Source of the DNA: a virus
Taxonomy: Duplodnaviria; Heunggongvirae; Uroviricota; Caudoviricetes
Virus record (IMG/VR): IMGVR_UViG_3300028840_008153
Location: 99,143-163,142 of that record
DNA length: 64,000 nt
Strand: one strand, 5' to 3'
Position numbers and translations under genes: made by a program. Positions within the stretch are counted from its first letter, which is position 1; the number at the start of each line of letters is the position of its first letter. Below the pieces are notes generated by a model. The model did no database searches. It worked only from the letters and a program-made list of their open reading frames with translations, and was not told where the DNA came from. Positions 4,957 to 59,783 of this stretch are shown piece by piece.

Positions 4957-5904
4957 TCAGTCTTCCATGGGCAGCGGATACGTTTCCCCGTCCTCGGCTA
5001 TCTCCGCCGGCCCTGTTGGCCCGGGCTCGTGCGTAGGCCGGGGCGGAGCGTTGTCGGGCGCGCCGGCCTTGCCGGGTATCGGACTCAGGAAAGGCTCATC
5101 CGCCCTGCGGCCCTCGGCCTGCGGACGCTGAGTGTAGCCTAAGGAAGCCAATCTGTCACGCGTCAGCTTCACCACTTCCTTCAGCGGCTTCGACAGATTC
5201 CCCGGCGTCTTCAGCGTCTCCAGAAAGTAGTGGGTCAGGGCTCCGCACGGGCGCCCGTTCACGTACGTGTCCGCGCTTGTCTGGTTGCTTTTGCAGCCAC
5301 TTACGAACCCCACCTCTAATCGCCCACACACGACCGCCCGGGGAGCGGGAGCTATGGATCGACTCAGACATGTGCGCTTCCTCCACTCGATGTCCACGGG
5401 CGTCGGGTACATCCTGGGGATCATGTCAGGCGCGTTGGGTACGGGCATGGCTCGGGTCAGATCGCCTGAGTGGCAGGAGTCGTTGACCCACGAGAAGAAG
5501 CAGCCCTTCGGGATGCGGCCGAACATGCGCACGAAGTCCTTGTCCGTGAGCATGTGGTTGAGGTCCCACTGAAAGTCAACGGGACACACGGCTTCGAGCA
5601 TTCCGTCGATCTCGTGGGCGTAGTCACGTGTTGGATACTGCACGCCATGGCCGGAGAAGTGGAAGAACACGCGAGCGCCCTTCCTCACCTTGACCAGCCA
5701 GTCGATGCGCTCCTTGATGGCCTGCGTGGTAGCTCGTTCGTCCACGAGCAGACGGATGTTCTCGGGGCTGAACCCGAAGACCTCCACCAGGGCCTCAGCC
5801 ATGTCGGAGACGTCGTTGACGCAGCCGGCCAGCGGAGCACCGGGGTAGCGATTGATCCCTACGAGGAGGGCTTTTTCTTCTCGTCTGAGTCCTTTGTCGC
5901 ACAT
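4957..5904 (-). CDS. Caspase-like peptidase (C14 family; metacaspase/orthocaspase-like)
   Basis: ALLVGINRYPGAPLAGCVNDV...FFHFSGHG (catalytic His) ... WVNDSCHSG (catalytic Cys): canonical caspase His-Cys dyad context. Confidence 0.65.
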   Translation of the reverse strand: MCDKGLRREEKALLVGINRYPGAPLAGCVNDVSDMAEALVEVFGFSPENIRLLVDERATTQAIKERIDWLVKVRKGARVFFHFSGHGVQYPTRDYAHEIDGMLEAVCPVDFQWDLNHMLTDKDFVRMFGRIPKGCFFSWVNDSCHSGDLTRAMPVPNAPDMIPRMYPTPVDIEWRKRTCLSRSIAPAPRAVVCGRLEVGFVSGCKSNQTSADTYVNGRPCGALTHYFLETLKTPGNLSKPLKEVVKLTRDRLASLGYTQRPQAEGRRADEPFLSPIPGKAGAPDNAPPRPTHEPGPTGPAEIAEDGETYPLPMED

Positions 5905-8900
5905 GACAGTTTTCTCCGTAGTGCTCGTTTCCTAAGAATAGCACCTGACTTGGCCAACGGGTAGTCATGATGCAGCGAGATGAAAGCCGGGTTGCGGTAT
6001 GCGCCGCTGGGGAACTTCTCCATGGCGGAGATGCGTGCCAGGCGCCCCTTCCAGTCCTCAGCCTCGTCCATCATCTGCCTGCGGGTGGCGTCGTCGAAGC
6101 CACCGCCCACCTTGCCCACGATCGGGCCCGTTGGGCTGAGACTGTAGTCAAAGCCGCCAGCGGCACCCTCGTACTTGCCCTTACCTGGGAAGACGTTCTG
6201 AATCCAGACATCATGCTCGGGCCGTGGCTTGACCTTGATCGCGCGTCCGGGCCTGGCAGCGGGCCACGCCACGACGCCCTCGTAGGTTGCGGGGTGTTCG
6301 CCGGACACGATGCGCTCATAGAGGGCCTTCTGCTCTTCAGGCGTCCGTGCGGTCTCAGGCAGCCGGAACTGACGATCCGGCAGGTGCTTCATCAGCTCCT
6401 GCAGCTTCTGCATGCGCTCCTCGCCGGTCAGCGTGCCGGGCTCAATCGGCGTCTTGCCCCAGCGCACCACGTCGAAGAGCATGTTCCTCATCTGGACATT
6501 CTGTGCCTTCTGCTTCTCCAGCGAGTTGGATAGCGCTGCGTTGAGTATGCCGCCCAGCTCCTGTACCGGTACTGCCTTGCCTTCACGTTCCCCGTACACC
6601 TCGCCACGGACGATCGTCCCTTGTAACTCCTTGGGAATATCGACCTTCGCCCCGCCAGGACCGAAGATCTTGTAGGTATAAAGGATCGGCCGTCCCGTCT
6701 TGGAGATTCGGTAGGAGAGGGCTTCGATTCGATCACCCAAGAGATGATACAGCGCGCTGGCGCCATCCACTTTCTCCTGAATCATGTAGTTGGGGTCAAA
6801 CAGCTTCTCCACCTTGTCGGCGGGCACCACGCCATACTTCAGCTTCTTGATGCCCACCTCTTCAGGCTTTCCCTTGAGCAGCTTGGCCGCGCTCACCGGC
6901 GTGGTGTTGATCATCAGCCACGCGCCGCCCTGCTGCTTGCGCTGACGGGCGCCTGCCGCGCTCGGCGGCCCGGACATGCGCACCATCGTGTAGAACTCAG
7001 GGAAGCGTTTGTGCGTGACCACGAACTGGATCTTGTCGCGTTCGGCCTTGGTCACGATGACCGAGCCGTAATCATGCTTCTTGACCGTGCCCTTGCCGTA
7101 GCCTTCCTCGATGTTGCCCTCGAACTCAGCGTACTGCCCACGATGAAGCGGCTGCTGGTAGAGCATGATCTTCTTACCAGGCTCGGGCAGCTCCTTGCGT
7201 GTGGCCCACGAGTAGAGCGAAGGCTCTCCGCCTTCCCTGCCCAACCTGACGTCGTAGTGGGGGCCGGCCTTCTGCGCCAGATGACGCTGCACGACCCATT
7301 TGAGGACCTCGCCGTGAGGGATCTGCCTGGGATCGCCAAAGCGTTTGGGATCGGGCAGGCCCGGAGCATAGTCCGCTTCGCCCTTCTTCAGTAGCTTGTA
7401 ACCTCCATAACTGGCAACAGGAACGCCAACCGCAGCCAGTGCGGTGAGCAGCTTGTTGCGCCGTATGGCGCCCAAGAGCCCCTGCTGCTTCTTCCAGTGG
7501 CCGTGCAACAACCTCTCGGCAAGCTCGGTATTCTCGGGTGTTAGGCCGTGCCCCGCGCGTTCGGCGAACTCTCGCAGACTCGCCACGCTCTTGCGCGCAA
7601 ACTCTGGATCACCCTCGGGCACATCAAAAAGCGCCAAAAGCGGCGCTATTCGGCCGGCCACGTCTTTCTGGCTGGAAGGGATCTGCAGCCCAACCTGTTT
7701 CCCCTTGGAGAAAAGCTCTGTGCCAAGGGGCACGTCCGTCAGCTTGCTCTTCTTCCAGTTGGCAAGATCCATGTCGGCGACTGCCTCGCCATATATCTGA
7801 CCGCGCGGGTCATTTCCACGGAAGAACTCCTTACCCATCTGGTAGAAGTCAGGCTCGACGTTTGTGAGATGCTGCGCCTTGAAGTAAGGCAGAGCCGCTT
7901 TCTTCTCGATTGTTGGTAATCCTGTGATCTTCTCAGCCAATTCCCATAGGAAATCCTGAGACTTTGGTAATTCCGTGTCATCCCATAGCAGCTCTGCGGC
8001 CTTTCTTATCTCCAGACCACGATTGGCCTCTTCGCTCGACTCCTTGAGCACTTCGAGGAACTGCGTGATGAGCTGCTGTTTGGTCTCGGAGAGGTTGGAC
8101 ATGTACTGGTCGGCGCCCGTGTCCTTCTCCACCATGCCCCAGCGTTGCATTAAGCCCCGCTTGGGGTTGGAGAAGTAGCGTCTGACCTTCACAACACGCT
8201 CTTCTTCAGGCAGGTGAGCGTGGCTTCCGTGCCGGACCGCTCGCCCTGTCATCTGATCGAGCCTGGACTGGTTCCAGTGCGGCTCCATAAGCTGCATGAG
8301 CTTGGTGCCTTTGAGGTCCAAACCCTCCGAGCCGGCGCCTGATACCAGTAAGATCTTCACATTGCCGGAGTTGTAATCCTCCACGATCTCACGGCGCTCG
8401 CTGTCCTTCAATCCGCCCGTGAACACGTGATGTGGAACGCCCTTCTTCTCCAACGCCTCGGCCAGCGGTAAGATACCGGATTGCAGGTAGTTGGAGTACA
8501 CCACGGCCTTGAAGTTGGGATCGCTCTCCAGCCCCTTGTAAAGGTCGCCCAGCATGCGCCTTAGCTTGGGAGAGTGCGCAACCGCCGAGCCCTTCATCGT
8601 CTCGTCGAAGGGCATGGGATTGTTGGACAGCTGGCGCACGGCCGAGAGGAATGCGTTGAGCTGGGCGGACTCGGCTTTGCTGGGTGGCAGGTTCTTCTTC
8701 ACCTTGTAGGCCAGCCCGACGTCCTCATTGAGGAACGCCTCATACATCGCCGTCTGCTCAGGCGTCATCTCGACTTCGATGTCTTCCTCTTCGACACGTG
8801 GGAAGTCGCCTTCGAGCGGATGGTAGTCAACACGGCCCTTGACGAGCCGTTTCAGCTCCTGCTGGTTCCTAAGGCGCTCCACCATTCCGGGCTTAACGCC

Positions 8901-9497
8901 GTGCCAAGTCTTCTGCCACCACGTGGGCCTTACCTCTACATTCTCCACGAACTTGTCACGGAAGGATTTATGAGATCCAGGCGGGTTTCGCCCCTGTGCC
9001 AGCACCTTGAGCATGGGCACGAACTCACTGGGATCGTTGCGCACGGGCGTGCCGGTGAGGAACATGACCTTGCCGTGGGCCTTTGTCGGGAGCTTGCTGA
9101 CTTTCGTGCCTGGCCGACCCATCCGATGTGCCTCATCGAAGACGGTTAGACCGGCCTGTGGCAAACCTTTGCTCACAGCCTTGTTATAAGACCGCACATC
9201 GTAGTCTGGTGCGCCCTCTGGCTGGTCGGTGAACTTCGACAGCTCCTTGCGGTAGTTCTCACGAAGCGCAGCAGGCACCACAACTGCTTTGGGGCCCTCG
9301 GTTTGCTCGCCTGCGGCGATGCTGGAGAGCGTCTTGCCCGATCCCAAGGCGTGATAGGCCAGAAGTGCAGGCTGTTGCTCCATCTTGGCAACAACACGCT
9401 CCTGCTGAGGCTGCATTTCCACCTCAGGCTTCAATGCGGCCTTCTTGGCTCTCTGCTTGGCGATCTTGATCAGGCCCATTTCGGAACCCATTCCCAA
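5859..9497 (-). CDS. SNF2-family helicase fused to a LigD-like 3'-phosphoesterase plus ATP-dependent ligase (nucleotidyltransferase) domain
   Basis: 1212 aa. N-terminus: GSGKT (motif I), DEAHR (II), LTGTPVRND (III), QMTGRAVRHGSH (VI). Middle: HYDVRLGREGGEPSLYSWATRKELP (LigD phosphoesterase HYDLR...SWAVPKG signature). C-terminus: KVDG (ligase motif I), YEGVVAW (IV), AIKVKPRP (V). Confidence 0.7.
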   Translation of the reverse strand: MGMGSEMGLIKIAKQRAKKAALKPEVEMQPQQERVVAKMEQQPALLAYHALGSGKTLSSIAAGEQTEGPKAVVVPAALRENYRKELSKFTDQPEGAPDYDVRSYNKAVSKGLPQAGLTVFDEAHRMGRPGTKVSKLPTKAHGKVMFLTGTPVRNDPSEFVPMLKVLAQGRNPPGSHKSFRDKFVENVEVRPTWWQKTWHGVKPGMVERLRNQQELKRLVKGRVDYHPLEGDFPRVEEEDIEVEMTPEQTAMYEAFLNEDVGLAYKVKKNLPPSKAESAQLNAFLSAVRQLSNNPMPFDETMKGSAVAHSPKLRRMLGDLYKGLESDPNFKAVVYSNYLQSGILPLAEALEKKGVPHHVFTGGLKDSERREIVEDYNSGNVKILLVSGAGSEGLDLKGTKLMQLMEPHWNQSRLDQMTGRAVRHGSHAHLPEEERVVKVRRYFSNPKRGLMQRWGMVEKDTGADQYMSNLSETKQQLITQFLEVLKESSEEANRGLEIRKAAELLWDDTELPKSQDFLWELAEKITGLPTIEKKAALPYFKAQHLTNVEPDFYQMGKEFFRGNDPRGQIYGEAVADMDLANWKKSKLTDVPLGTELFSKGKQVGLQIPSSQKDVAGRIAPLLALFDVPEGDPEFARKSVASLREFAERAGHGLTPENTELAERLLHGHWKKQQGLLGAIRRNKLLTALAAVGVPVASYGGYKLLKKGEADYAPGLPDPKRFGDPRQIPHGEVLKWVVQRHLAQKAGPHYDVRLGREGGEPSLYSWATRKELPEPGKKIMLYQQPLHRGQYAEFEGNIEEGYGKGTVKKHDYGSVIVTKAERDKIQFVVTHKRFPEFYTMVRMSGPPSAAGARQRKQQGGAWLMINTTPVSAAKLLKGKPEEVGIKKLKYGVVPADKVEKLFDPNYMIQEKVDGASALYHLLGDRIEALSYRISKTGRPILYTYKIFGPGGAKVDIPKELQGTIVRGEVYGEREGKAVPVQELGGILNAALSNSLEKQKAQNVQMRNMLFDVVRWGKTPIEPGTLTGEERMQKLQELMKHLPDRQFRLPETARTPEEQKALYERIVSGEHPATYEGVVAWPAARPGRAIKVKPRPEHDVWIQNVFPGKGKYEGAAGGFDYSLSPTGPIVGKVGGGFDDATRRQMMDEAEDWKGRLARISAMEKFPSGAYRNPAFISLHHDYPLAKSGAILRKRALRRKLSCATKDSDEKKKPSS

Positions 9498-34023: not shown

Positions 34024-34327
34024 TCTGTAGCTCCCTTATCTGAGATTCCGAGTGCCTGCGGACCGCCGAGCGCACCATGGAGGTGGGCACCATGAACTTG
34101 CGTGCCAGCCAGCGAATGACTTCGTGCGCGTGACGATTCGTCAAAAACAGCTCCCGGCGGCTAATTGGGAGCTTTCCGTCTCGCCCGTCGGGCCCGGTCA
34201 GAAACAGCTCGTCGAAGTAATCGCAAAGCTCGTGATACTCCCGAGCCATCATCTCCAGCCGTCGCACCTCCTCATCCGGCACGCAGGGCGCGTTGAGGTA
34301 CATCGCGTAGAAGTCATCGTCGGTCAT
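33929..34327 (-). CDS. Hypothetical protein (about 132 aa)
   Basis: Trimmed to MTDDDFYAMYLNAPCVPDEEV. Confidence 0.35.
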   Translation of the reverse strand: MTDDDFYAMYLNAPCVPDEEVRRLEMMAREYHELCDYFDELFLTGPDGRDGKLPISRRELFLTNRHAHEVIRWLARKFMVPTSMVRSAVRRHSESQIRELQNADPRSLPGTLQKGFEETAGRTFDADRQRAL

Positions 34328-34488
34328 GACTCCTCCTCCATGTACTGCTTGAGCCACTGGCGGTAAGACTGCACGCCGTACACGAGAAGCGCCACGAAAG
34401 CGAGCGGGACGCCAACCATCCACTCCAAAAAACCGTCCGGGTCGAAAAGCCAGAACAGAAGCAGAAACACTCCCGCAAGAATCAGCAT
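34324..34488 (-). CDS. Small membrane protein (54 aa), paralogue of 38608..38727
   Basis: MLILAGVFLLLFWLF...LLVYGVQSYRQWLKQYMEEES; its C-terminus aligns with LIHYGIKWYKRWLDKYIEE of the 39-aa protein beyond array 2. Confidence 0.4.
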   Translation of the reverse strand: MLILAGVFLLLFWLFDPDGFLEWMVGVPLAFVALLVYGVQSYRQWLKQYMEEES

Positions 34489-34591
34489 CGTAGCCTCTCT
34501 CCCATAGCTAACGAAAAACGAAGCACTGCCCGGCACCGAAGTGCCGGGCAGCGCGCCCAAGTTCACAAGTAAGGACGCCGCCTTCTGGCAA

Positions 34592-35210
34592 GGCCCACCC
34601 GCAAGCGCGTGGAGGCACCGTCCGTATCCGATCGATCTCAGAATCGATCACCGGCTCACCCGCAAGCGCGTGGAGGGGCCCTCGGGATCGCTGCGATGCA
34701 GCGGCCCACCCGCAAGCGCGTAGAGGTACCTACTCGGCCATGGCTGACGCGAATTCCTCTGAGGGCCCACCCGCAAGCGCGTGGAGGTACCTTGAGGGGG
34801 GGGCTGTCCTCACGGCCATCACGTACGACCCACCCGCAAGCGCGTGGAGGTACCCTGGTGCTGAAGTGGGTCGGAACTCCCACCCGCAAGCGCGTGGAGG
34901 TACCCTGGTGCTGAAGTGGGTCGGAACTCGGGACACGGGCCCACCCGCAAGCGCGTGGAGGTACCGGGCTATATTTTTTTTCAGACGGTGAAGTAGCACG
35001 GCCCACCCGCAAGCGCGTGGAGGTACCCAGATGTCTCCCCACTCGTAAGTGTGAGGCTCCGGCCCACCCGCAAGCGCGTGGAGGTACCGCTCTCAGTCCA
35101 GATCAGCCCACTATTCTTGGGGGCCCACCCGCAAGCGCGTGGAGGTACCACTTCTGTGGCGCCGGTTTTGGCTTTTGGGATGGGCCCACCCGCAAGCGCG
35201 TGGAGGTACC
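34592..35210. CRISPR. CRISPR-like array 1: 11 repeats of 28 nt (GGCCCACCCGCAAGCGCGTGGAGGTACC), spacers mostly 33 nt
   Basis: Repeat starts read directly at 34592, 34653, 34703, 34764, 34826, 34876, 34937, 35000, 35061, 35122 and 35183. The two leftmost repeats are degenerate, so the trailer is at the low-coordinate end. The repeat can fold as CCAC-CCGC-AAGC-GCG-TGG. Spacers are unique except spacer 5, a 22-nt prefix copy of spacer 6. Confidence 0.8.
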
Positions 35211-35320
35211 TCTATGACAAAATGACATGGTTTGGGTGGTCAGCTCATGGAGCTTGGTGATTACTGGAGCAGTCCCTCCAGCCTGGCGCTCACCCCGGGC
35301 GCGAAGCCATGCCATTGGTA
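35211..35320. other. Leader-like flank shared by both arrays (copy 1)
   Basis: About 85 nt, GGTCAGCTCATGGAGCTTGGTGATTACTGGAGCAGTCCCTCCAGCCTGGCGCTCACCCCGGGCGC, is nearly identical at 38463..38540. It contains the hairpin CTGGAG-cagtcc-CTCCAG. Confidence 0.5.
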
Positions 35321-35321
35321 A

Positions 35322-36044
35322 TCAACTGAACTTCTTGATGATCTTCGCCAGCTCTTTCACGCTGGTGCGAACCACCTGACGCATGTTGTGTCCTACACAC
35401 TCCGCCAGAAGATACCTTGCATCGTTCGGGTCCTCCAGGACGTTGATGATGCGAAGATACTTCGGCTGCCGCGTCTTGGGACGCCGCTCATGGGGAGGGA
35501 TCTCTCCCCGTTCGGGACGGTCATAGTCGAAGATCACCTTGGCCTCTTCGGCTGTGACCTTGCTGAAGTTCTTCTCGACGGCCGTGTTCTTCTTGATCAC
35601 GACTGTCGTGGCGTCGGCATTGATGCGCTTCTGCGTTTCTTCGGGCAGCCTCAGGAAAAGATCCGTGGTCACCCATTCCTTCTCGAACGCGACCTTGCTC
35701 ATCACGCCCGCGCCGTACGCGTGGATCTTGGTGAAAAGGCCGTACGAAATGCCAGAACCAGCAACCACTTCGTTGTAGAACTCCTCCACCTGGTGGTCGG
35801 CGAGCTGGCCGATCTTCTTCTTGTGTTTCAGAAGCACCTTGCGCATGCCGGCTTTGTAGGCGACCTTGAGCTTCTCGATCTCCTTGCCGACAGCCTCGCA
35901 CAGCTTCTCAAACTCAGCCTCAGGAAGACCGGAGCCCCCCAGTCCCGGAGGAATTCGTCGAGGGGGCTTGCATGCTGGACTAATCCGTGCCATCCGTTGC
36001 CTCCTTTTTCCTTTTTCCGTAGCTGCTGACAGAGTCCACGACAT
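35322..36044 (-). CDS. Uncharacterised protein (240 aa, or 223 aa from the alternative start at 35993) encoded between the two arrays
   Basis: The alternative start MARISPACKPP (ATG 35993) has an AAGGAGG RBS at 7 nt spacing and overlaps the 575-aa gene's stop by 14 nt. No recognisable family; a Gly-rich segment VVAGSGISYGLFTKIHAYGAG. Confidence 0.5.
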   Translation of the reverse strand: MSWTLSAATEKGKRRQRMARISPACKPPRRIPPGLGGSGLPEAEFEKLCEAVGKEIEKLKVAYKAGMRKVLLKHKKKIGQLADHQVEEFYNEVVAGSGISYGLFTKIHAYGAGVMSKVAFEKEWVTTDLFLRLPEETQKRINADATTVVIKKNTAVEKNFSKVTAEEAKVIFDYDRPERGEIPPHERRPKTRQPKYLRIINVLEDPNDARYLLAECVGHNMRQVVRTSVKELAKIIKKFS

Positions 36045-37818: not shown

Positions 37819-38462
37819 GGCCCATCCCCACACGTATGGGGCAGCCTCAAAATCAAAGCGGTAAACTGCCGTCCCCATCGGCCCACCCCCAACTGAAAAA
37901 GGAGAACGGAACGGGTCCATCCCTACGCGTATGGGGCAGCCGCCAGCAACATCCTGCGCCACAGCCCTTGACTCGGCCCATCCCTACGCGTATGAGGCAG
38001 CCGCATGGAAATGCGTGGGCAAGTTGACGGATGAGGGCCCATCCCCACTGACACCATCTCAGACGCGCTGCGGCCCATCCCCATGCGCGTGGGGCAGTCG
38101 CGCAACTGCCGAACTGCTGAATCTACGTAGCGGGCCCATCCCGCGTGTATGGGGAAGCCTGGGACCGCGCTGAAGACCCGGCTACCGGGCGGGCCCATCC
38201 CCACGCGTACGGGGCAGCCCCCCCCTCGGGCAGTATCCGTGCTCCTCGGTCCACGGCCCATCCCCGCGCGTATGGGGCAGCCAACGAGGTACTGCTGGGG
38301 CAGGTGCAGGCCCTGGGCCCATCTCCACGCGTATAGGGCAGCGGCACAGACAATGGGAGGATAGCCATGAAAGAGGGCCCATCCCCACGCGTATGGGCAG
38401 CCCGGACATACTCGCAGACCGCAGGATGCACGCCGGGCCCATAAGCCAATATGACACAGGTG
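37819..38462. CRISPR. CRISPR-like array 2: about 10 degenerate repeats of 28 nt (GGCCCATCCCCACGCGTATGGGGCAGCC), spacers 32-36 nt
   Basis: Repeat starts at 37819, 37914, 37975, 38072, 38133, 38192, 38255, 38316 and 38375. Heavily mutated units sit at 37880 and 38036, with a truncated remnant at 38435. Repeat hairpin is CCCCA-cgcgta-TGGGG. It shares the 5' GGCCCAYCC with the array-1 repeat. The array looks decaying, with 1-3 mismatches per repeat. Confidence 0.7.
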
Positions 38463-38540
38463 GGGATGGTCAGCTCATGGAGCTTGGTGATTACTGGAGC
38501 AGTCCCTCCAGCCTGGCGCTCACCCCGGGCGCAAAACCGT
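38463..38540. other. Leader-like flank shared by both arrays (copy 2)
   Basis: Near-identical to 35228..35315. Confidence 0.5.
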
Positions 38541-38607
38541 GTCATAGAAATTGGCTGTACTTTATTTTAACGCAAACGCGCGGAGAAATTAGGGGGCGCC
38601 GGTAGGG

Positions 38608-38727
38608 TTATTCCTCTATGTACTTGTCGAGCCAGCGCTTGTACCACTTGATGCCGTAGTGGATGAGGGCAACAAGCCCGATTCCTGAGAGCAACACCAG
38701 CGTGGCCATGCCTGCAACGGTAATCAT
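38608..38727 (-). CDS. Small membrane protein (39 aa), paralogue of 34324..34488
   Basis: MITVAGMATLVLLSGIGLVALIHYGIKWYKRWLDKYIEE; AGGAGG RBS 5 nt upstream. Not in the track (under 60 aa). Confidence 0.45.
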   Translation of the reverse strand: MITVAGMATLVLLSGIGLVALIHYGIKWYKRWLDKYIEE

Positions 38728-57939: not shown

Positions 57940-58016
57940 TGGTAGCGGGGGCAGGACTTGAACCTGCGACCTCCGGGTTATGAGCCCGACGAGCTGCCTA
58001 ACTGCTCCACCCCGCA
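57940..58016 (-). tRNA. tRNA-Met (anticodon CAT), initiator-type
   Basis: Minus-strand sequence TGCGGGGTGGAGCAGTTAGGCAGCTCGTCGGGCTCATAACCCGGAGGTCGCAGGTTCAAGTCCTGCCCCCGCTACCA. It has three G-C pairs at the base of the anticodon stem, an A11:U24 pair and an unpaired 1:72 position (U·U), with CCA encoded. About 85% identical to E. coli tRNA-fMet. Confidence 0.85.
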
Positions 58017-58058: not shown

Positions 58059-59783
58059 TCAAACCTCCACCGCCTCGATTTCGCCAACCCACTTCGCCGG
58101 GCTCAACCCATCCTTGGCGAACATGGAAACGACGTCGAACACGGTGTCCGAGAACCCGCCGACCTGCAGGATGCTGGGATCGCCAGCGCCCTTCACCTGC
58201 GTGGTCGAGTACGGCGTGATGTCGAGACACACCAGCTTCGCCTGCTTGTTGTGGCGTTTGAACCTCTGCCACGCCTTCTGAAGCTCGGTGCCGCGCCGGC
58301 CGCCATACGGGTGGGTACTGTCAATCCAGCTCTCGTAGTCCGAGACCAGGATCACGGTGTCCGCCGGGATGTTGTTGTCGTTGAGGTGATTCACCGTCAA
58401 CGAACAGTTCGTCCCGCCCGAAGGCAGCTCCGACAGGATGCGGGCGTTTGTCATGACCGTATCCCGTGGGTTGAGCCTTGGGTACTCGGACATGGTCGTC
58501 TGGTTGCCAAAGTAGTAGGCGCGCTGCTGCACGCGCCGACCGGGGAGCGCAAGATGATCACTGAACGGGATCACCTGGGCTTCCGGGTTCTTGCGCAAGA
58601 TCGCCGCCGCCATCAACGCCGCCACGTGGACACAGCTCGTCTTCGTGGAGTGGCCTCTCGGCCCCCGGCTCTGAGTGACCGGGCTGTGCATGCTCCCTGA
58701 GATATCAGGGAACACGAACACTCGGCCCTCGATTGCCGGCACGTTCTCGATGGCGACTTCCATCGCCTGTTCAAGCGCGGCCTGAACGGACTGCGGGATC
58801 TCCGGGTTGAGGTTCAGGTAGGCGGTCAGCAACTGGTACGGAAACTGACGGGCCTTCGTGATCTCTTCCCGGTTCTGCAGCCGATTCTCGACCTTCTGGC
58901 GCAGCTCCGCGTTTCCCAACACCCCGTACTTCAGGAAGTTGTTGAGGTTCATGCGCGTGAACTGCCACCTGCCGTTCCGGGCCAGGATCTTCCATTCGGC
59001 CTCGCCGATGCCGACGCCGTCGAGCATCTGGAAGGGCACATCGGGGATCGTCACGTCCTTCACGCCCGCCTTGTGCGCGGTCTTCCAGTTCTCGTATTCC
59101 TTCACCATCTCCGGCAGCTTGTCCGGCTCGTACCGGCGCGTGACCTTCTTGCCCGTAGCGGCAGGCTCCACGCGCTCCTTCCAACCGTCTGGGCCGACCG
59201 GGTCGAAACCCAACAGGTAGCCAAACAGCGCCTCCTTCTGAGGCGTGTTTGGGCTTGGGTGGGCAAGCCGGATCACATCCACGAGAGACGGATCGTTGCC
59301 GACCGAGCCCCGGAAGATGGTCTCCGGGCGGGTGCGATCGAACCAGCGCTGGATCGAGCGCCGCTGCGAAGAAGCCAGCGACTTGCGCCCGAAGACGCCC
59401 GAGCGGACGAACTGCGCGAAGTTGCGCAGCATCTTCGCGTTGTCGATCACCCGATCGAACACCTTGTCGGCCAGGTCACGAGGAGCCTTGCCCAGCGAGA
59501 GGCTCGCCGCCAGGAAGGCCGGCATGTCCTTCATGAGCCCCTTCTCACGGGCGTAGATGGCCAGCTTGGCGATGAACATGTCGTCGACATGCGCGAGCGT
59601 CGACTTGACCGTGTCCAGTTGCCCCTTGGCGGAGACGTAATACGTGTCACCGAAGCATCCGGTGACCGCGTACTGCGCCAAAAGCTCCTTGGGGCCCCGG
59701 CTGTACGCCCGGCCTCCGGCCTCGTTGACGGCATCCGTTTCCGGTGCCTGAGTGTGCGTGCTGAAAAGGCTTTTGTTAGCCAT
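58059..59783 (-). CDS. rsr: Ro60/Rsr orthologue (TROVE plus VWA domains)
   Basis: N-terminal TROVE (…GGRAYSRGPKELLAQYAVTGCFGDTYY…) and C-terminal VWA with the MIDAS motif VFVFPDISGSMHSP; GGGGAGGG RBS. Confidence 0.8.
   Translation of the reverse strand: MANKSLFSTHTQAPETDAVNEAGGRAYSRGPKELLAQYAVTGCFGDTYYVSAKGQLDTVKSTLAHVDDMFIAKLAIYAREKGLMKDMPAFLAASLSLGKAPRDLADKVFDRVIDNAKMLRNFAQFVRSGVFGRKSLASSQRRSIQRWFDRTRPETIFRGSVGNDPSLVDVIRLAHPSPNTPQKEALFGYLLGFDPVGPDGWKERVEPAATGKKVTRRYEPDKLPEMVKEYENWKTAHKAGVKDVTIPDVPFQMLDGVGIGEAEWKILARNGRWQFTRMNLNNFLKYGVLGNAELRQKVENRLQNREEITKARQFPYQLLTAYLNLNPEIPQSVQAALEQAMEVAIENVPAIEGRVFVFPDISGSMHSPVTQSRGPRGHSTKTSCVHVAALMAAAILRKNPEAQVIPFSDHLALPGRRVQQRAYYFGNQTTMSEYPRLNPRDTVMTNARILSELPSGGTNCSLTVNHLNDNNIPADTVILVSDYESWIDSTHPYGGRRGTELQKAWQRFKRHNKQAKLVCLDITPYSTTQVKGAGDPSILQVGGFSDTVFDVVSMFAKDGLSPAKWVGEIEAVEV

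Follow-up and report, generated by a model that had tools for sequence, protein, structure and literature searches.

A duplicated, structured flank heads two type I-E-style CRISPR arrays in a phage and is a candidate guide-RNA scaffold for a Cas12f-like protein

Two CRISPR arrays in a 64-kb stretch of phage DNA (the window, which is the whole stretch that was analyzed) are each headed by a copy of one conserved flank, and each copy may be a gene of about 100 nt for a folded RNA, a tracrRNA- or scoutRNA-like cofactor of a nuclease-dead Cas12f-like protein encoded between the arrays. We give this reading, drawn from sequence comparisons, about an even chance of being correct. The flank is duplicated, its fold is preserved by covarying changes, it carries a stretch complementary to the repeats of the adjacent array, the protein encoded next to it has a Cas12f-like fold, and all of these parts recur in related loci. 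These features point to a module that would be transcribed and processed, and that would be bound by the protein in a complex acting on DNA.

Results

The flank is duplicated and precedes both arrays

An earlier note on this DNA had described an about 85-nt flank duplicated beside both arrays, and comparison of the two sites bore this out. A 65-nt core occurs in two exact copies (35238-35302 and 38468-38532, plus-strand numbering of the 64-kb window) inside an extended pair of 87 nt with 92% identity (35229-35315 and 38459-38545). The core gave no match in 100 dinucleotide shuffles, and none is expected by chance. It has a GC content of 66%, and identity falls abruptly beyond it, to 13/35 and 17/35 positions in the 35 nt on either side. 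The hairpin CTGGAG-CAGTCC-CTCCAG announced in that note was found at 35264-35281 and 38494-38511; the minus-strand reading adds a G.U as the seventh pair. The truncated repeat reported next to the flank at array 2 is also present (GGCTTATGGGCC, 38436-38447) and corresponds to the repeat minus its hairpin. At array 1, the flank had been said to follow the last perfect repeat directly, which is nearly so: the repeat ends at 35210 and the conserved stretch begins 11-19 nt further on. The description of the flank as coming after the arrays had to be reversed, since the arrays are read on the minus strand and the flank therefore precedes each of them. On that strand, the structured modules defined below span 35221..35316 (copy 1, 96 nt) and 38445..38555 (copy 2, 111 nt), each containing the identical core.

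Only these two copies of the flank were found in the 64-kb window. IMG/VR contained no exact match to a 28-mer of the core, and a 20-mer gave just four chance matches, located in an unrelated ORF, in a metagenome collection that evidently lacks this phage. Searches of GenBank phages with blastn and tblastn retrieved no match, including no tblastn match for the 575-aa protein encoded between the arrays. The att-like element once suggested for the flank found no support, as the window contains two copies only and the viral and metagenome scans retrieved no others. The same phage is represented by five assemblies with 99.8-100% identity and with the same spacers; the arrays are unchanged among them except for a collapsed duplication (L001) and a divergent end (L002). 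Short contigs of this phage end within the duplicated flank.

Arrays, orientation, and transcription signals

Array 1 (34592..35210, minus strand) is built from a 28-nt repeat, GGTACCTCCACGCGCTTGCGGGTGGGCC, with 33-34-nt spacers and a 61-nt period. Its repeats are perfect beside the module and degenerate at the far end, and a 50-nt tandem duplication lies inside it. Array 2 (37819..38447, minus strand) has the consensus repeat GGCTGCCCCATACGCGTGGGGATGGGCC, of which nearly all copies are mutated; two half-repeats consist of the 3' half alone, and the first repeat (38436-38447) lacks the hairpin. The repeats of the two arrays have diverged to 68% identity. Scans with IUPAC patterns for both repeat types in 185,579 species genomes found no exact array; their single, chance-level match was to a related canonical type I-E array in a Terriglobia MAG (L023), in which the order is cas genes, cas1, cas2, leader and array. 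The minus strand of repeat 2 has 21 of its 28 bases in common with the repeat of that array, GTTCTCCCCACGCGCGTGGGGATGGTCCG, in the same orientation.

On the minus strand, the unit runs from module 2 through array 2, the 575-aa gene, the 223-aa gene, module 1, and array 1 to an intrinsic terminator (34513..34554, minus strand) with a 14-bp stem and a T tract, which lies just beyond the far end of array 1 and closes the unit. The neighboring ORFs are all on the minus strand. Transcription from this strand is indicated by the agreement of genes, terminator, repeat decay, co-orientation with L023, and the G.U pairs of the closing helix described below. The locus is bordered on both outer sides by paralogous genes for small membrane proteins.

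A consensus sigma-70 scan found no promoter. The region 38556..38611 (minus strand), which is AT-richer (48% GC) and contains the -10-like hexamer TAAAAT (38564-38569) 8 nt before the closing helix of copy 2, is a possible, if weak, candidate for the promoter of the whole unit; reading of the sequences showed -10-like hexamers 4-8 nt before this helix in the related loci L010 and L011 as well. Module copy 1 starts 6 nt past the stop codon of the 223-aa gene, which leaves no space for a promoter of its own. The suggestion that the flank might be a terminator was not upheld: a terminator scan reported no site within either copy, and no T tract follows any of the hairpins on either strand. Nor is there a terminator between module and array. 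Searches of the 64-kb window for Cas1e and Cas2 gave no match, and comparison of the flank with the I-E leader of L023 detected no similarity. A TTGGT leader-repeat junction, common to L008, L009, L010, L012, and L016, is absent at both arrays of the window.

A Cas12f-like protein and a partner protein are encoded between the arrays

The 575-aa gene (P0001; 35980..37707, minus strand) matched nothing in Pfam, PADLOC, PHROG, or NCBIfam when its product was used alone. Two word-indexed searches, one of them covering 5.8 billion proteins, returned only the protein itself, and a protein-seeded scan of IMG/VR found no relative. A HMMER scan of 1.84 billion cluster representatives identified 11 homologues with 23-29% identity. 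The resulting family profile matched Cas12f1 and TnpB chains in the PDB (E = 3.6e-11 to 1e-9), and in PADLOC 8 of the 12 family members matched Cas12u3 (1.2e-14) or Cas12f (4.3e-13). An AlphaFold (AF2) model built on the alignment reached a pLDDT of 77; in a Foldseek search with this model the top 20 matches were all Cas12f (best E = 1.9e-10), followed by TnpB, Cas12m, Cas12k, and others, and the second-best was 9n9c (dCas12f-sigmaE). In this model the protein has the WED-REC-RuvC fold of Cas12f/TnpB, and its nearest structural relatives are Cas12f proteins that were solved with long sgRNAs. In the family, F, Y, K, or P occupies the column of the RuvC-II Glu (the Glu of "IENL" in 9i8y), and the column of the RuvC-I Asp, after "..EV" (Asp in Cas12f), is non-acidic. 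The proteins end soon after a "KA.E.GI" motif, with neither a Zn ribbon (TNB) nor a RuvC-III segment. The 575-aa protein is thus Cas12f-like but not a canonical member, since the RuvC catalytic residues and the Zn ribbon are missing; it is probably a very divergent Cas12f-like protein without nuclease activity.

The gene of the 223-aa partner protein (35322..35993, minus strand) overlaps the end of the effector gene. Homologues of 216-267 aa are encoded directly after the effector gene in six related loci (L007, L010, L011, L012, L015, and L016). The partner had no match in Pfam, PDB, PADLOC, PHROG, or NCBIfam, a word-indexed search retrieved only the protein itself, and its single-sequence AF2 model had a pLDDT of 39. 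A profile match to a cytochrome c555 trimer was rejected as helical low-complexity noise.

Both copies of the flank can fold into the same module

Read on the minus strand, both copies can be folded into a closing helix (P1), three hairpins within the core, an unpaired C-rich joiner of 11-12 nt, and the 3' strand of P1. In copy 1, P1 comprises 10 bp (35307-35316 with 35221-35230), hairpins 1, 2, and 3 are located at 35285-35302, 35263-35282, and 35242-35254, and the unpaired joiner, the candidate anti-repeat GACCACCCAAA, occupies 35231-35241. In copy 2, P1 also has 10 bp (38537-38546 with 38450-38459) and is extended by 5-6 pairs (38550-38555 with 38445-38450), the hairpins are located at 38515-38532, 38493-38512, and 38472-38484, and the joiner or anti-repeat, GACCATCCCCAC, at 38460-38471; all these features are on the minus strand.

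The identical core does not include P1, and in this helix the copies differ at 4 of the 10 pairs, with all ten pairs kept and none broken. Two of the changes are double compensatory ones (A-U to U-A and U-A to C-G), and the other two are switches between G.U and Watson-Crick pairs. The G.U pairs exist on the minus strand only, being A.C on the other strand. Since the core hairpins are identical in both copies, the covariation within the window bears on P1 only. The fold of the window copies was no more stable than that of shuffled sequences (z = -1.1 for copy 1 and z = -2.0 for copy 2). The helices of the window and L010 modules were inconsistently aligned by MAFFT, and no joint covariance model was obtained.

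Rfam searches returned nothing at either copy, both at the gathering threshold and at E <= 10. ARAGORN found no tRNA at the flank, its sole prediction being a tRNA-Met at 57940-58016. A tRNA-like cloverleaf was rejected on account of this result, of the 3-nt loop of hairpin 3, and of the 11-nt joiner before the closing helix. Small ORFs of 70 and 140 aa that begin with the ATG in each flank were likewise discarded, as they run into the arrays, have no ribosome-binding sites, and encode proteins that differ outside the core.

The joiner is complementary to the adjacent repeat

The copy 2 joiner, GACCAUCCCCAC, contains CCATCCCCAC, whose 10 nt are perfectly complementary to positions 16-25 of repeat 2 (p = 0.007 against shuffles). 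Overall, each joiner can pair with the 3' half of the repeat of its own array, over 11 bp at array 2 and 7 bp at array 1. In copy 1, the pairing read from the sequence involves positions 20-27 of repeat 1 and consists of 7 bp and one A.G mismatch; this complementarity is not significant on its own (p = 0.25). The same reading placed both joiners in one register on the shared repeat end, with G1-C27, an A.G mismatch, C-G, C-G, and A-U. Past this shared register, copy 1 continues with C-G, C-G, and C-G, and copy 2 with U-A and six more pairs. At position 22 of the repeat, array 1 has G and array 2 has A; opposite this position, the joiner of copy 1 has C and that of copy 2 has U, which makes this a covarying pair. 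The copy 2 joiner, CCAUCCCCAC, is also a perfect match to GUGGGGAUGG, a sequence that occurs within the canonical I-E repeat of L023 (Terriglobia MAG) too.

Perfect anti-repeats were found in L007 (9 nt), L008 (10 nt), and one L016 flank (L016A, 8 nt), and 9/10 matches in L011 and the other L016 flank (L016B). Complementarity was weak or short in both L010 flanks (L010A and L010B), and the best complement of L011 sits in a hairpin loop, not in the joiner. Over nine upstream flanks, complements of the own repeat were enriched (Fisher-combined p = 2.2e-5), as they were when the worse copy of each paralogue pair was used (p = 6.7e-4); no enrichment was seen in the trailer-side controls (p = 0.24-0.99). 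The best match falls within repeat positions 14-26, adjoining the spacer, in 6/9 cases. In these GC-rich sequences, cognate and non-cognate repeats could not be told apart by RNAduplex energies.

Related loci carry the same arrangement

Ten of the 11 effector homologues could be placed on contigs, and DNA was available for nine. These contigs are phage-like and include ones of 232 kb and 548 kb that consist mostly of short ORFs without family matches; the source genome of the window is ~198 kb long, and at least three contigs of the family measure ~200-550 kb. Every locus with enough flanking DNA contains arrays of 61-nt period with 28-29-nt hairpin repeats and a ~7-nt tail, and L011 encodes a Cas1 with a score of 375 bits against the Cas1e model of type I-E. 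This rare CRISPR-associated family combines arrays in the style of type I-E with a dead, type V-like effector and a partner protein.

In L010 and L016, alike paired flanks also head both arrays, with four (L010) and two (L016) compensatory double changes between the paralogous flanks. Both arrays of L016 share one repeat, yet each has its own module. The closing helix, three hairpins, and unpaired 3' joiner recur with unrelated sequence in L010, L011, and L012, where the folds were compared with shuffles (z = -4.0 and -5.0 for the two L010 copies, -6.05 for L011, and -8.1 for L012). In L012, the effector and partner genes are separated by 158 nt, and the module is found in this gap, at a distance of ~800 nt from the array; its anti-repeat, perfect over 13 nt, lies just ahead of the 3' strand of the closing helix (p = 0.002). 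Being apart from the array, this module must act in trans or as an RNA. In all informative relatives, the module lies inside the effector-array locus.

Discussion

The results can be accommodated in a model in which the whole unit would be read on the minus strand, from module 2 through to the terminator. The identical 65-nt core, its three hairpins held together by P1, would be the scaffold bound by the one effector. Past hairpin 3, the C-rich joiner would base-pair to the 3' half of the neighboring repeat, a few nucleotides away from the spacer; the two copies would share one register, each joiner having a sequence suited to its own array. In this way, type I-E-style repeats would become usable by a class 2 effector, and the resulting complex would bind DNA with no cutting. 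Such a scaffold would explain why there is one copy per array and why the core has remained identical while the repeats diverged to 68%. Our confidence is held at an even level because the pairing is short in copy 1 and L010, the duplex energies do not discriminate, and there are two precedents that are free of tracrRNA. Since the modules abut the arrays without an intervening terminator, the 5' part of the pre-crRNA may be the only form in which they exist. The repeats, which contain their own hairpins, could be sufficient by themselves.

The leader proposed in the earlier note stood as far as position is concerned, each flank being upstream of its array on the minus strand; a plain leader is disfavored by the covarying P1, the joiner complementarity, the detached L012 module, the failure to find cas1 or cas2 in the 64 kb, the dissimilarity to the L023 leader, and the lack of promoter room in copy 1. 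A cis-acting leader RNA, that is, a structured 5' end of the pre-crRNA that stays outside the effector complex and serves transcript stability, processing of the first crRNA, suppression of extraneous crRNAs, or anti-termination, is a tentative possibility. The module adjoins the array in most loci with no terminator between them, one module is present per array even where L016 shares a repeat, and the -10-like hexamers before P1 in copy 2, L010, and L011 would make P1 the 5' end of the RNA; as a precedent, the leader RNA of the Streptococcus pyogenes type II-A system is known to pair with the first repeat. This explanation sits poorly with L012, whose module is parted from the array by the partner gene and nevertheless has the best anti-repeat, and with array 2, where the segment needed for pairing with the joiner is missing from the first repeat, making such pairing in cis impossible. 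An identical 65-nt core beside two diverged arrays also suggests a common partner in trans. It is rather unlikely that the flank is an ordinary DNA leader, containing a promoter and the signals for spacer insertion by Cas1-Cas2, with copies alike because both arrays use one adaptation machinery. Its location upstream of the first repeat on the transcribed strand, the polarity of repeat decay in array 1, the type I-E-like arrays with their 61-nt period, the Cas1e of L011, and the TTGGT junction common to five other loci are as such a leader would have them. However, that junction is missing at the window arrays, neither cas1 nor cas2 was found in the window, and the arrays are alike in the five assemblies save for the L001 and L002 differences. 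The core is GC-rich and without a consensus promoter, copy 1 begins almost at a stop codon, and the flank is unlike the leader of the canonical L023 locus. A DNA leader does not predict the G.U-tolerant compensation in P1 or the detached L012 module either.

The flank could also be the scar or end of a mobile element, namely a duplicated or mobilizable cassette comprising array 2, the effector, and the partner, or a MITE-like element beside both arrays. Here the direct repeats bracketing a 3.2-kb cassette, the short inverted repeats bounding each copy, the abrupt drop of identity at the core edges, as from gene conversion, and the paralogous membrane-protein genes on both sides of the locus would be accounted for. 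We nevertheless find this very unlikely: the 64 kb contain just two copies, the viral and metagenome scans added none, there is no adjacent integrase or transposase, and no excised variant occurs among the five assemblies. Moreover, the inverted repeats differ in ways that preserve pairing, G.U pairs included, and other phages have, at the equivalent place, sequences that are unrelated but share the fold. A terminator of the upstream partner gene, ending its transcript before array 1, would fit the GC-rich hairpins 6-60 nt past the stop codon of the 223-aa gene, and is hardly tenable: neither strand provides a T tract, the scan is negative within both copies, a real terminator is located at 34513-34554, and copy 2 follows a different gene and precedes the effector operon. 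We also give little credence to a bolder proposal, prompted by the match of the copy 2 joiner within the L023 repeat, in which the module would be an adaptor that lets the dead Cas12f-like phage protein capture any I-E-style crRNA, including those of the host. It would then act in counter-defence, by sequestering host crRNAs or by occupying their targets on the phage genome uncut, while its own arrays silence competitors, and the locus, with its partner protein and its I-E-type arrays (plus Cas1e in L011), would represent an undescribed hybrid type V subtype.

If the scaffold reading is true, a class 2 effector has adopted class 1 (type I-E) arrays by means of a small adaptor RNA that is fitted to each array through changes in its joiner. 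The reading would also define a rare family of nuclease-dead Cas12f-like proteins, with 12 cluster representatives among 1.84 billion; together with its conserved partner, this family would be a candidate system of large phages for RNA-guided DNA binding or silencing. What look like conserved "leaders" next to type V-like arrays may then be genes for cofactor RNAs, and a compact DNA-binding effector with a short modular guide scaffold would be of practical interest. No description of the effector family was found in the literature searched. Al-Shayeb et al. in 2022 reportedly described 44 type V-related phage families, and this family may be among them.

Type V-F Cas12f (Cas12f1/V-U3) needs a tracrRNA, and the predicted module RNA resembles that tracrRNA as a non-coding RNA within a cas-array locus that has several hairpins, a segment complementary to the 3' part of the repeat beside the spacer, and a small effector of Cas12f fold. 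It differs in that the window has one copy per array, fused to the array head on the same strand, whereas the V-F tracrRNA is a single separate gene. The repeat:anti-repeat duplex is short here (7-13 bp), the repeats are of I-E type with 28-29 nt and a hairpin of their own instead of ~36 nt, and the effector has neither the RuvC triad nor the Zn ribbon. The scoutRNA of Cas12c and Cas12d is a structured cofactor RNA in which a short unpaired stretch pairs with the crRNA repeat; the module is likewise a structured candidate cofactor with a short repeat-pairing stretch, the likeness being one of description. The effector family is another, and the complementarity in the present modules is usually longer. 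With type I-E leaders, the flank shares its site directly upstream of an I-E-type array (61-nt period) and its similarity between the arrays of one genome. In contrast to them, it is GC-rich and highly structured, with fold rather than sequence conserved, it is unlike the L023 leader despite a near-identical repeat, and no Cas1 or Cas2 was found in the window.

Among dead effectors, dCas12f-sigmaE is a nuclease-dead Cas12f homologue that works with an ECF sigma factor partner in RNA-guided transcription (PMC13472631; PDB 9n9c); it is chromosomal, occurs in Bacteroidetes, and uses a single omega-RNA-like guide, with no arrays and no tracrRNA (PMC13472631). Both systems combine a naturally dead Cas12f homologue with a partner protein, but the partner described here has no detectable match to sigma factors or to other families. 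In the Cas12r-CRISPR system of Thermus Lalka phages, the TnpB-derived effector has ~564 aa and an active RuvC nuclease (D238), the arrays consist of degenerate I-E-like 29-bp repeats with 31-33-nt spacers and start 15 bp past the gene, small-RNA sequencing recovered crRNAs only, with no tracrRNA, and adaptation by the I-E machinery has been proposed (bioRxiv 10.64898/2026.04.20.719267). The family described here shares with it a phage-borne effector of similar size and I-E-like degenerate arrays; the Cas12r nuclease is active, and neither a partner protein nor a structured upstream module has been reported for it. Cas12r is the nearest analogue of the family, from which it differs in nuclease activity, RNA requirement, and partner.

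Structure of the Two Arrays

In array 1, a 50-nt unit made up of one repeat and a truncated 22-nt spacer occurs twice in perfect tandem (window 34829-34929). The same unit is present in a single copy in L001, a 198-kb ENA assembly of the same phage, versus the tandem pair of the window; this difference is due either to variation within the population or to collapse of the pair during assembly. The JGI contig L002, another assembly of this phage, departs from the window in array 1 past the first half of spacer 3: in this region (L002:7935-8028) it matches the window array up to about 35044, and then carries an inverted near-copy of spacer 3 (27 of 33 positions) plus unrelated sequence. Possible origins of this divergent end are a chimera formed in assembly, a variant array that has been rearranged, or a join to target-like sequence.

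In array 2, two half-repeats consist of the 3′ half alone, ..GTGGGGATGGGCC and ..TTGGGGGTGGGCC (window 37875-37895 and 38035-38055), and they result in spacings of 95-97 nt. The retained half is the portion complementary to the joiner, the unpaired C-rich stretch of the flank RNA modules. Among the full repeats of this array, the repeat hairpin is not maintained by the mutations.

Genes Bordering the CRISPR Unit and Elsewhere in the Window

Directly outside the CRISPR unit, two small membrane-protein genes are located on the minus strand, one on each side, coding for products of 39 aa (38608-38727) and 54 aa (34324-34488). They are paralogous, both products terminating in ...WL(K/D)(Q/K)Y(M/I)EE, and the unit may be an insertion that landed between them, or may have been duplicated along with them.

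Two further minus-strand genes of the window were noted. In one 1212-aa ORF (window 5859-9497), a LigD 3′-phosphoesterase domain is fused to an SNF2-type helicase (SNF2-rel_dom, Helicase_C), and the ORF has in addition a weak, sub-threshold match to an ATP-dependent DNA ligase domain (22.8 bits; cutoff 26.2); such a repair-enzyme fusion is unusual in phage. The gene at window 58059-59783 codes for a Ro60/TROVE protein of 574 aa that has a vWA domain (E = 1e-14), and lies directly upstream of the sole tRNA of the window, a tRNA-Met (CAT; 57940-58016, minus strand). Since the partners of bacterial Ro60 proteins are Y RNAs with tRNA-like parts, the RNA at this position may be more than a plain tRNA.

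Comparison With Other CRISPR Loci

In five otherwise unrelated loci of distant effector homologs (L008, L009, L010, L012, and L016), the final 5 nt preceding the first repeat are TTGGT or CTGGT, and in L010 and L016 this motif occurs at both arrays. Neither window array has it at the first-repeat junction. The motif could be the true leader-repeat junction signal for Cas1e-Cas2e that was lost in the window phage. Another such locus, L011, carries at the contig edge (L011:1-78), upstream of Cas1e, a short second set of repeats (GTTTGTTCCCTGATAYAT) with 60-nt spacing, dissimilar to the array located downstream of the partner gene (which follows the effector gene); this set may represent another array type within the L011 phage.

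A canonical type I-E locus, with cas1, cas2, a short leader and an array, is present in a Terriglobia MAG (L023:1-1550; JBELAJ010000274.1). Its 29-nt repeat, GTTCTCCCCACGCGCGTGGGGATGGTCCG, has 21 of 28 bases in common with the consensus repeat of array 2, and includes the exact 10-mer complemented by the copy-2 joiner, the proposed anti-repeat (38460-38471). This likeness of repeats hints at an acidobacterial host for the window phage, or at host crRNAs that could be bound.
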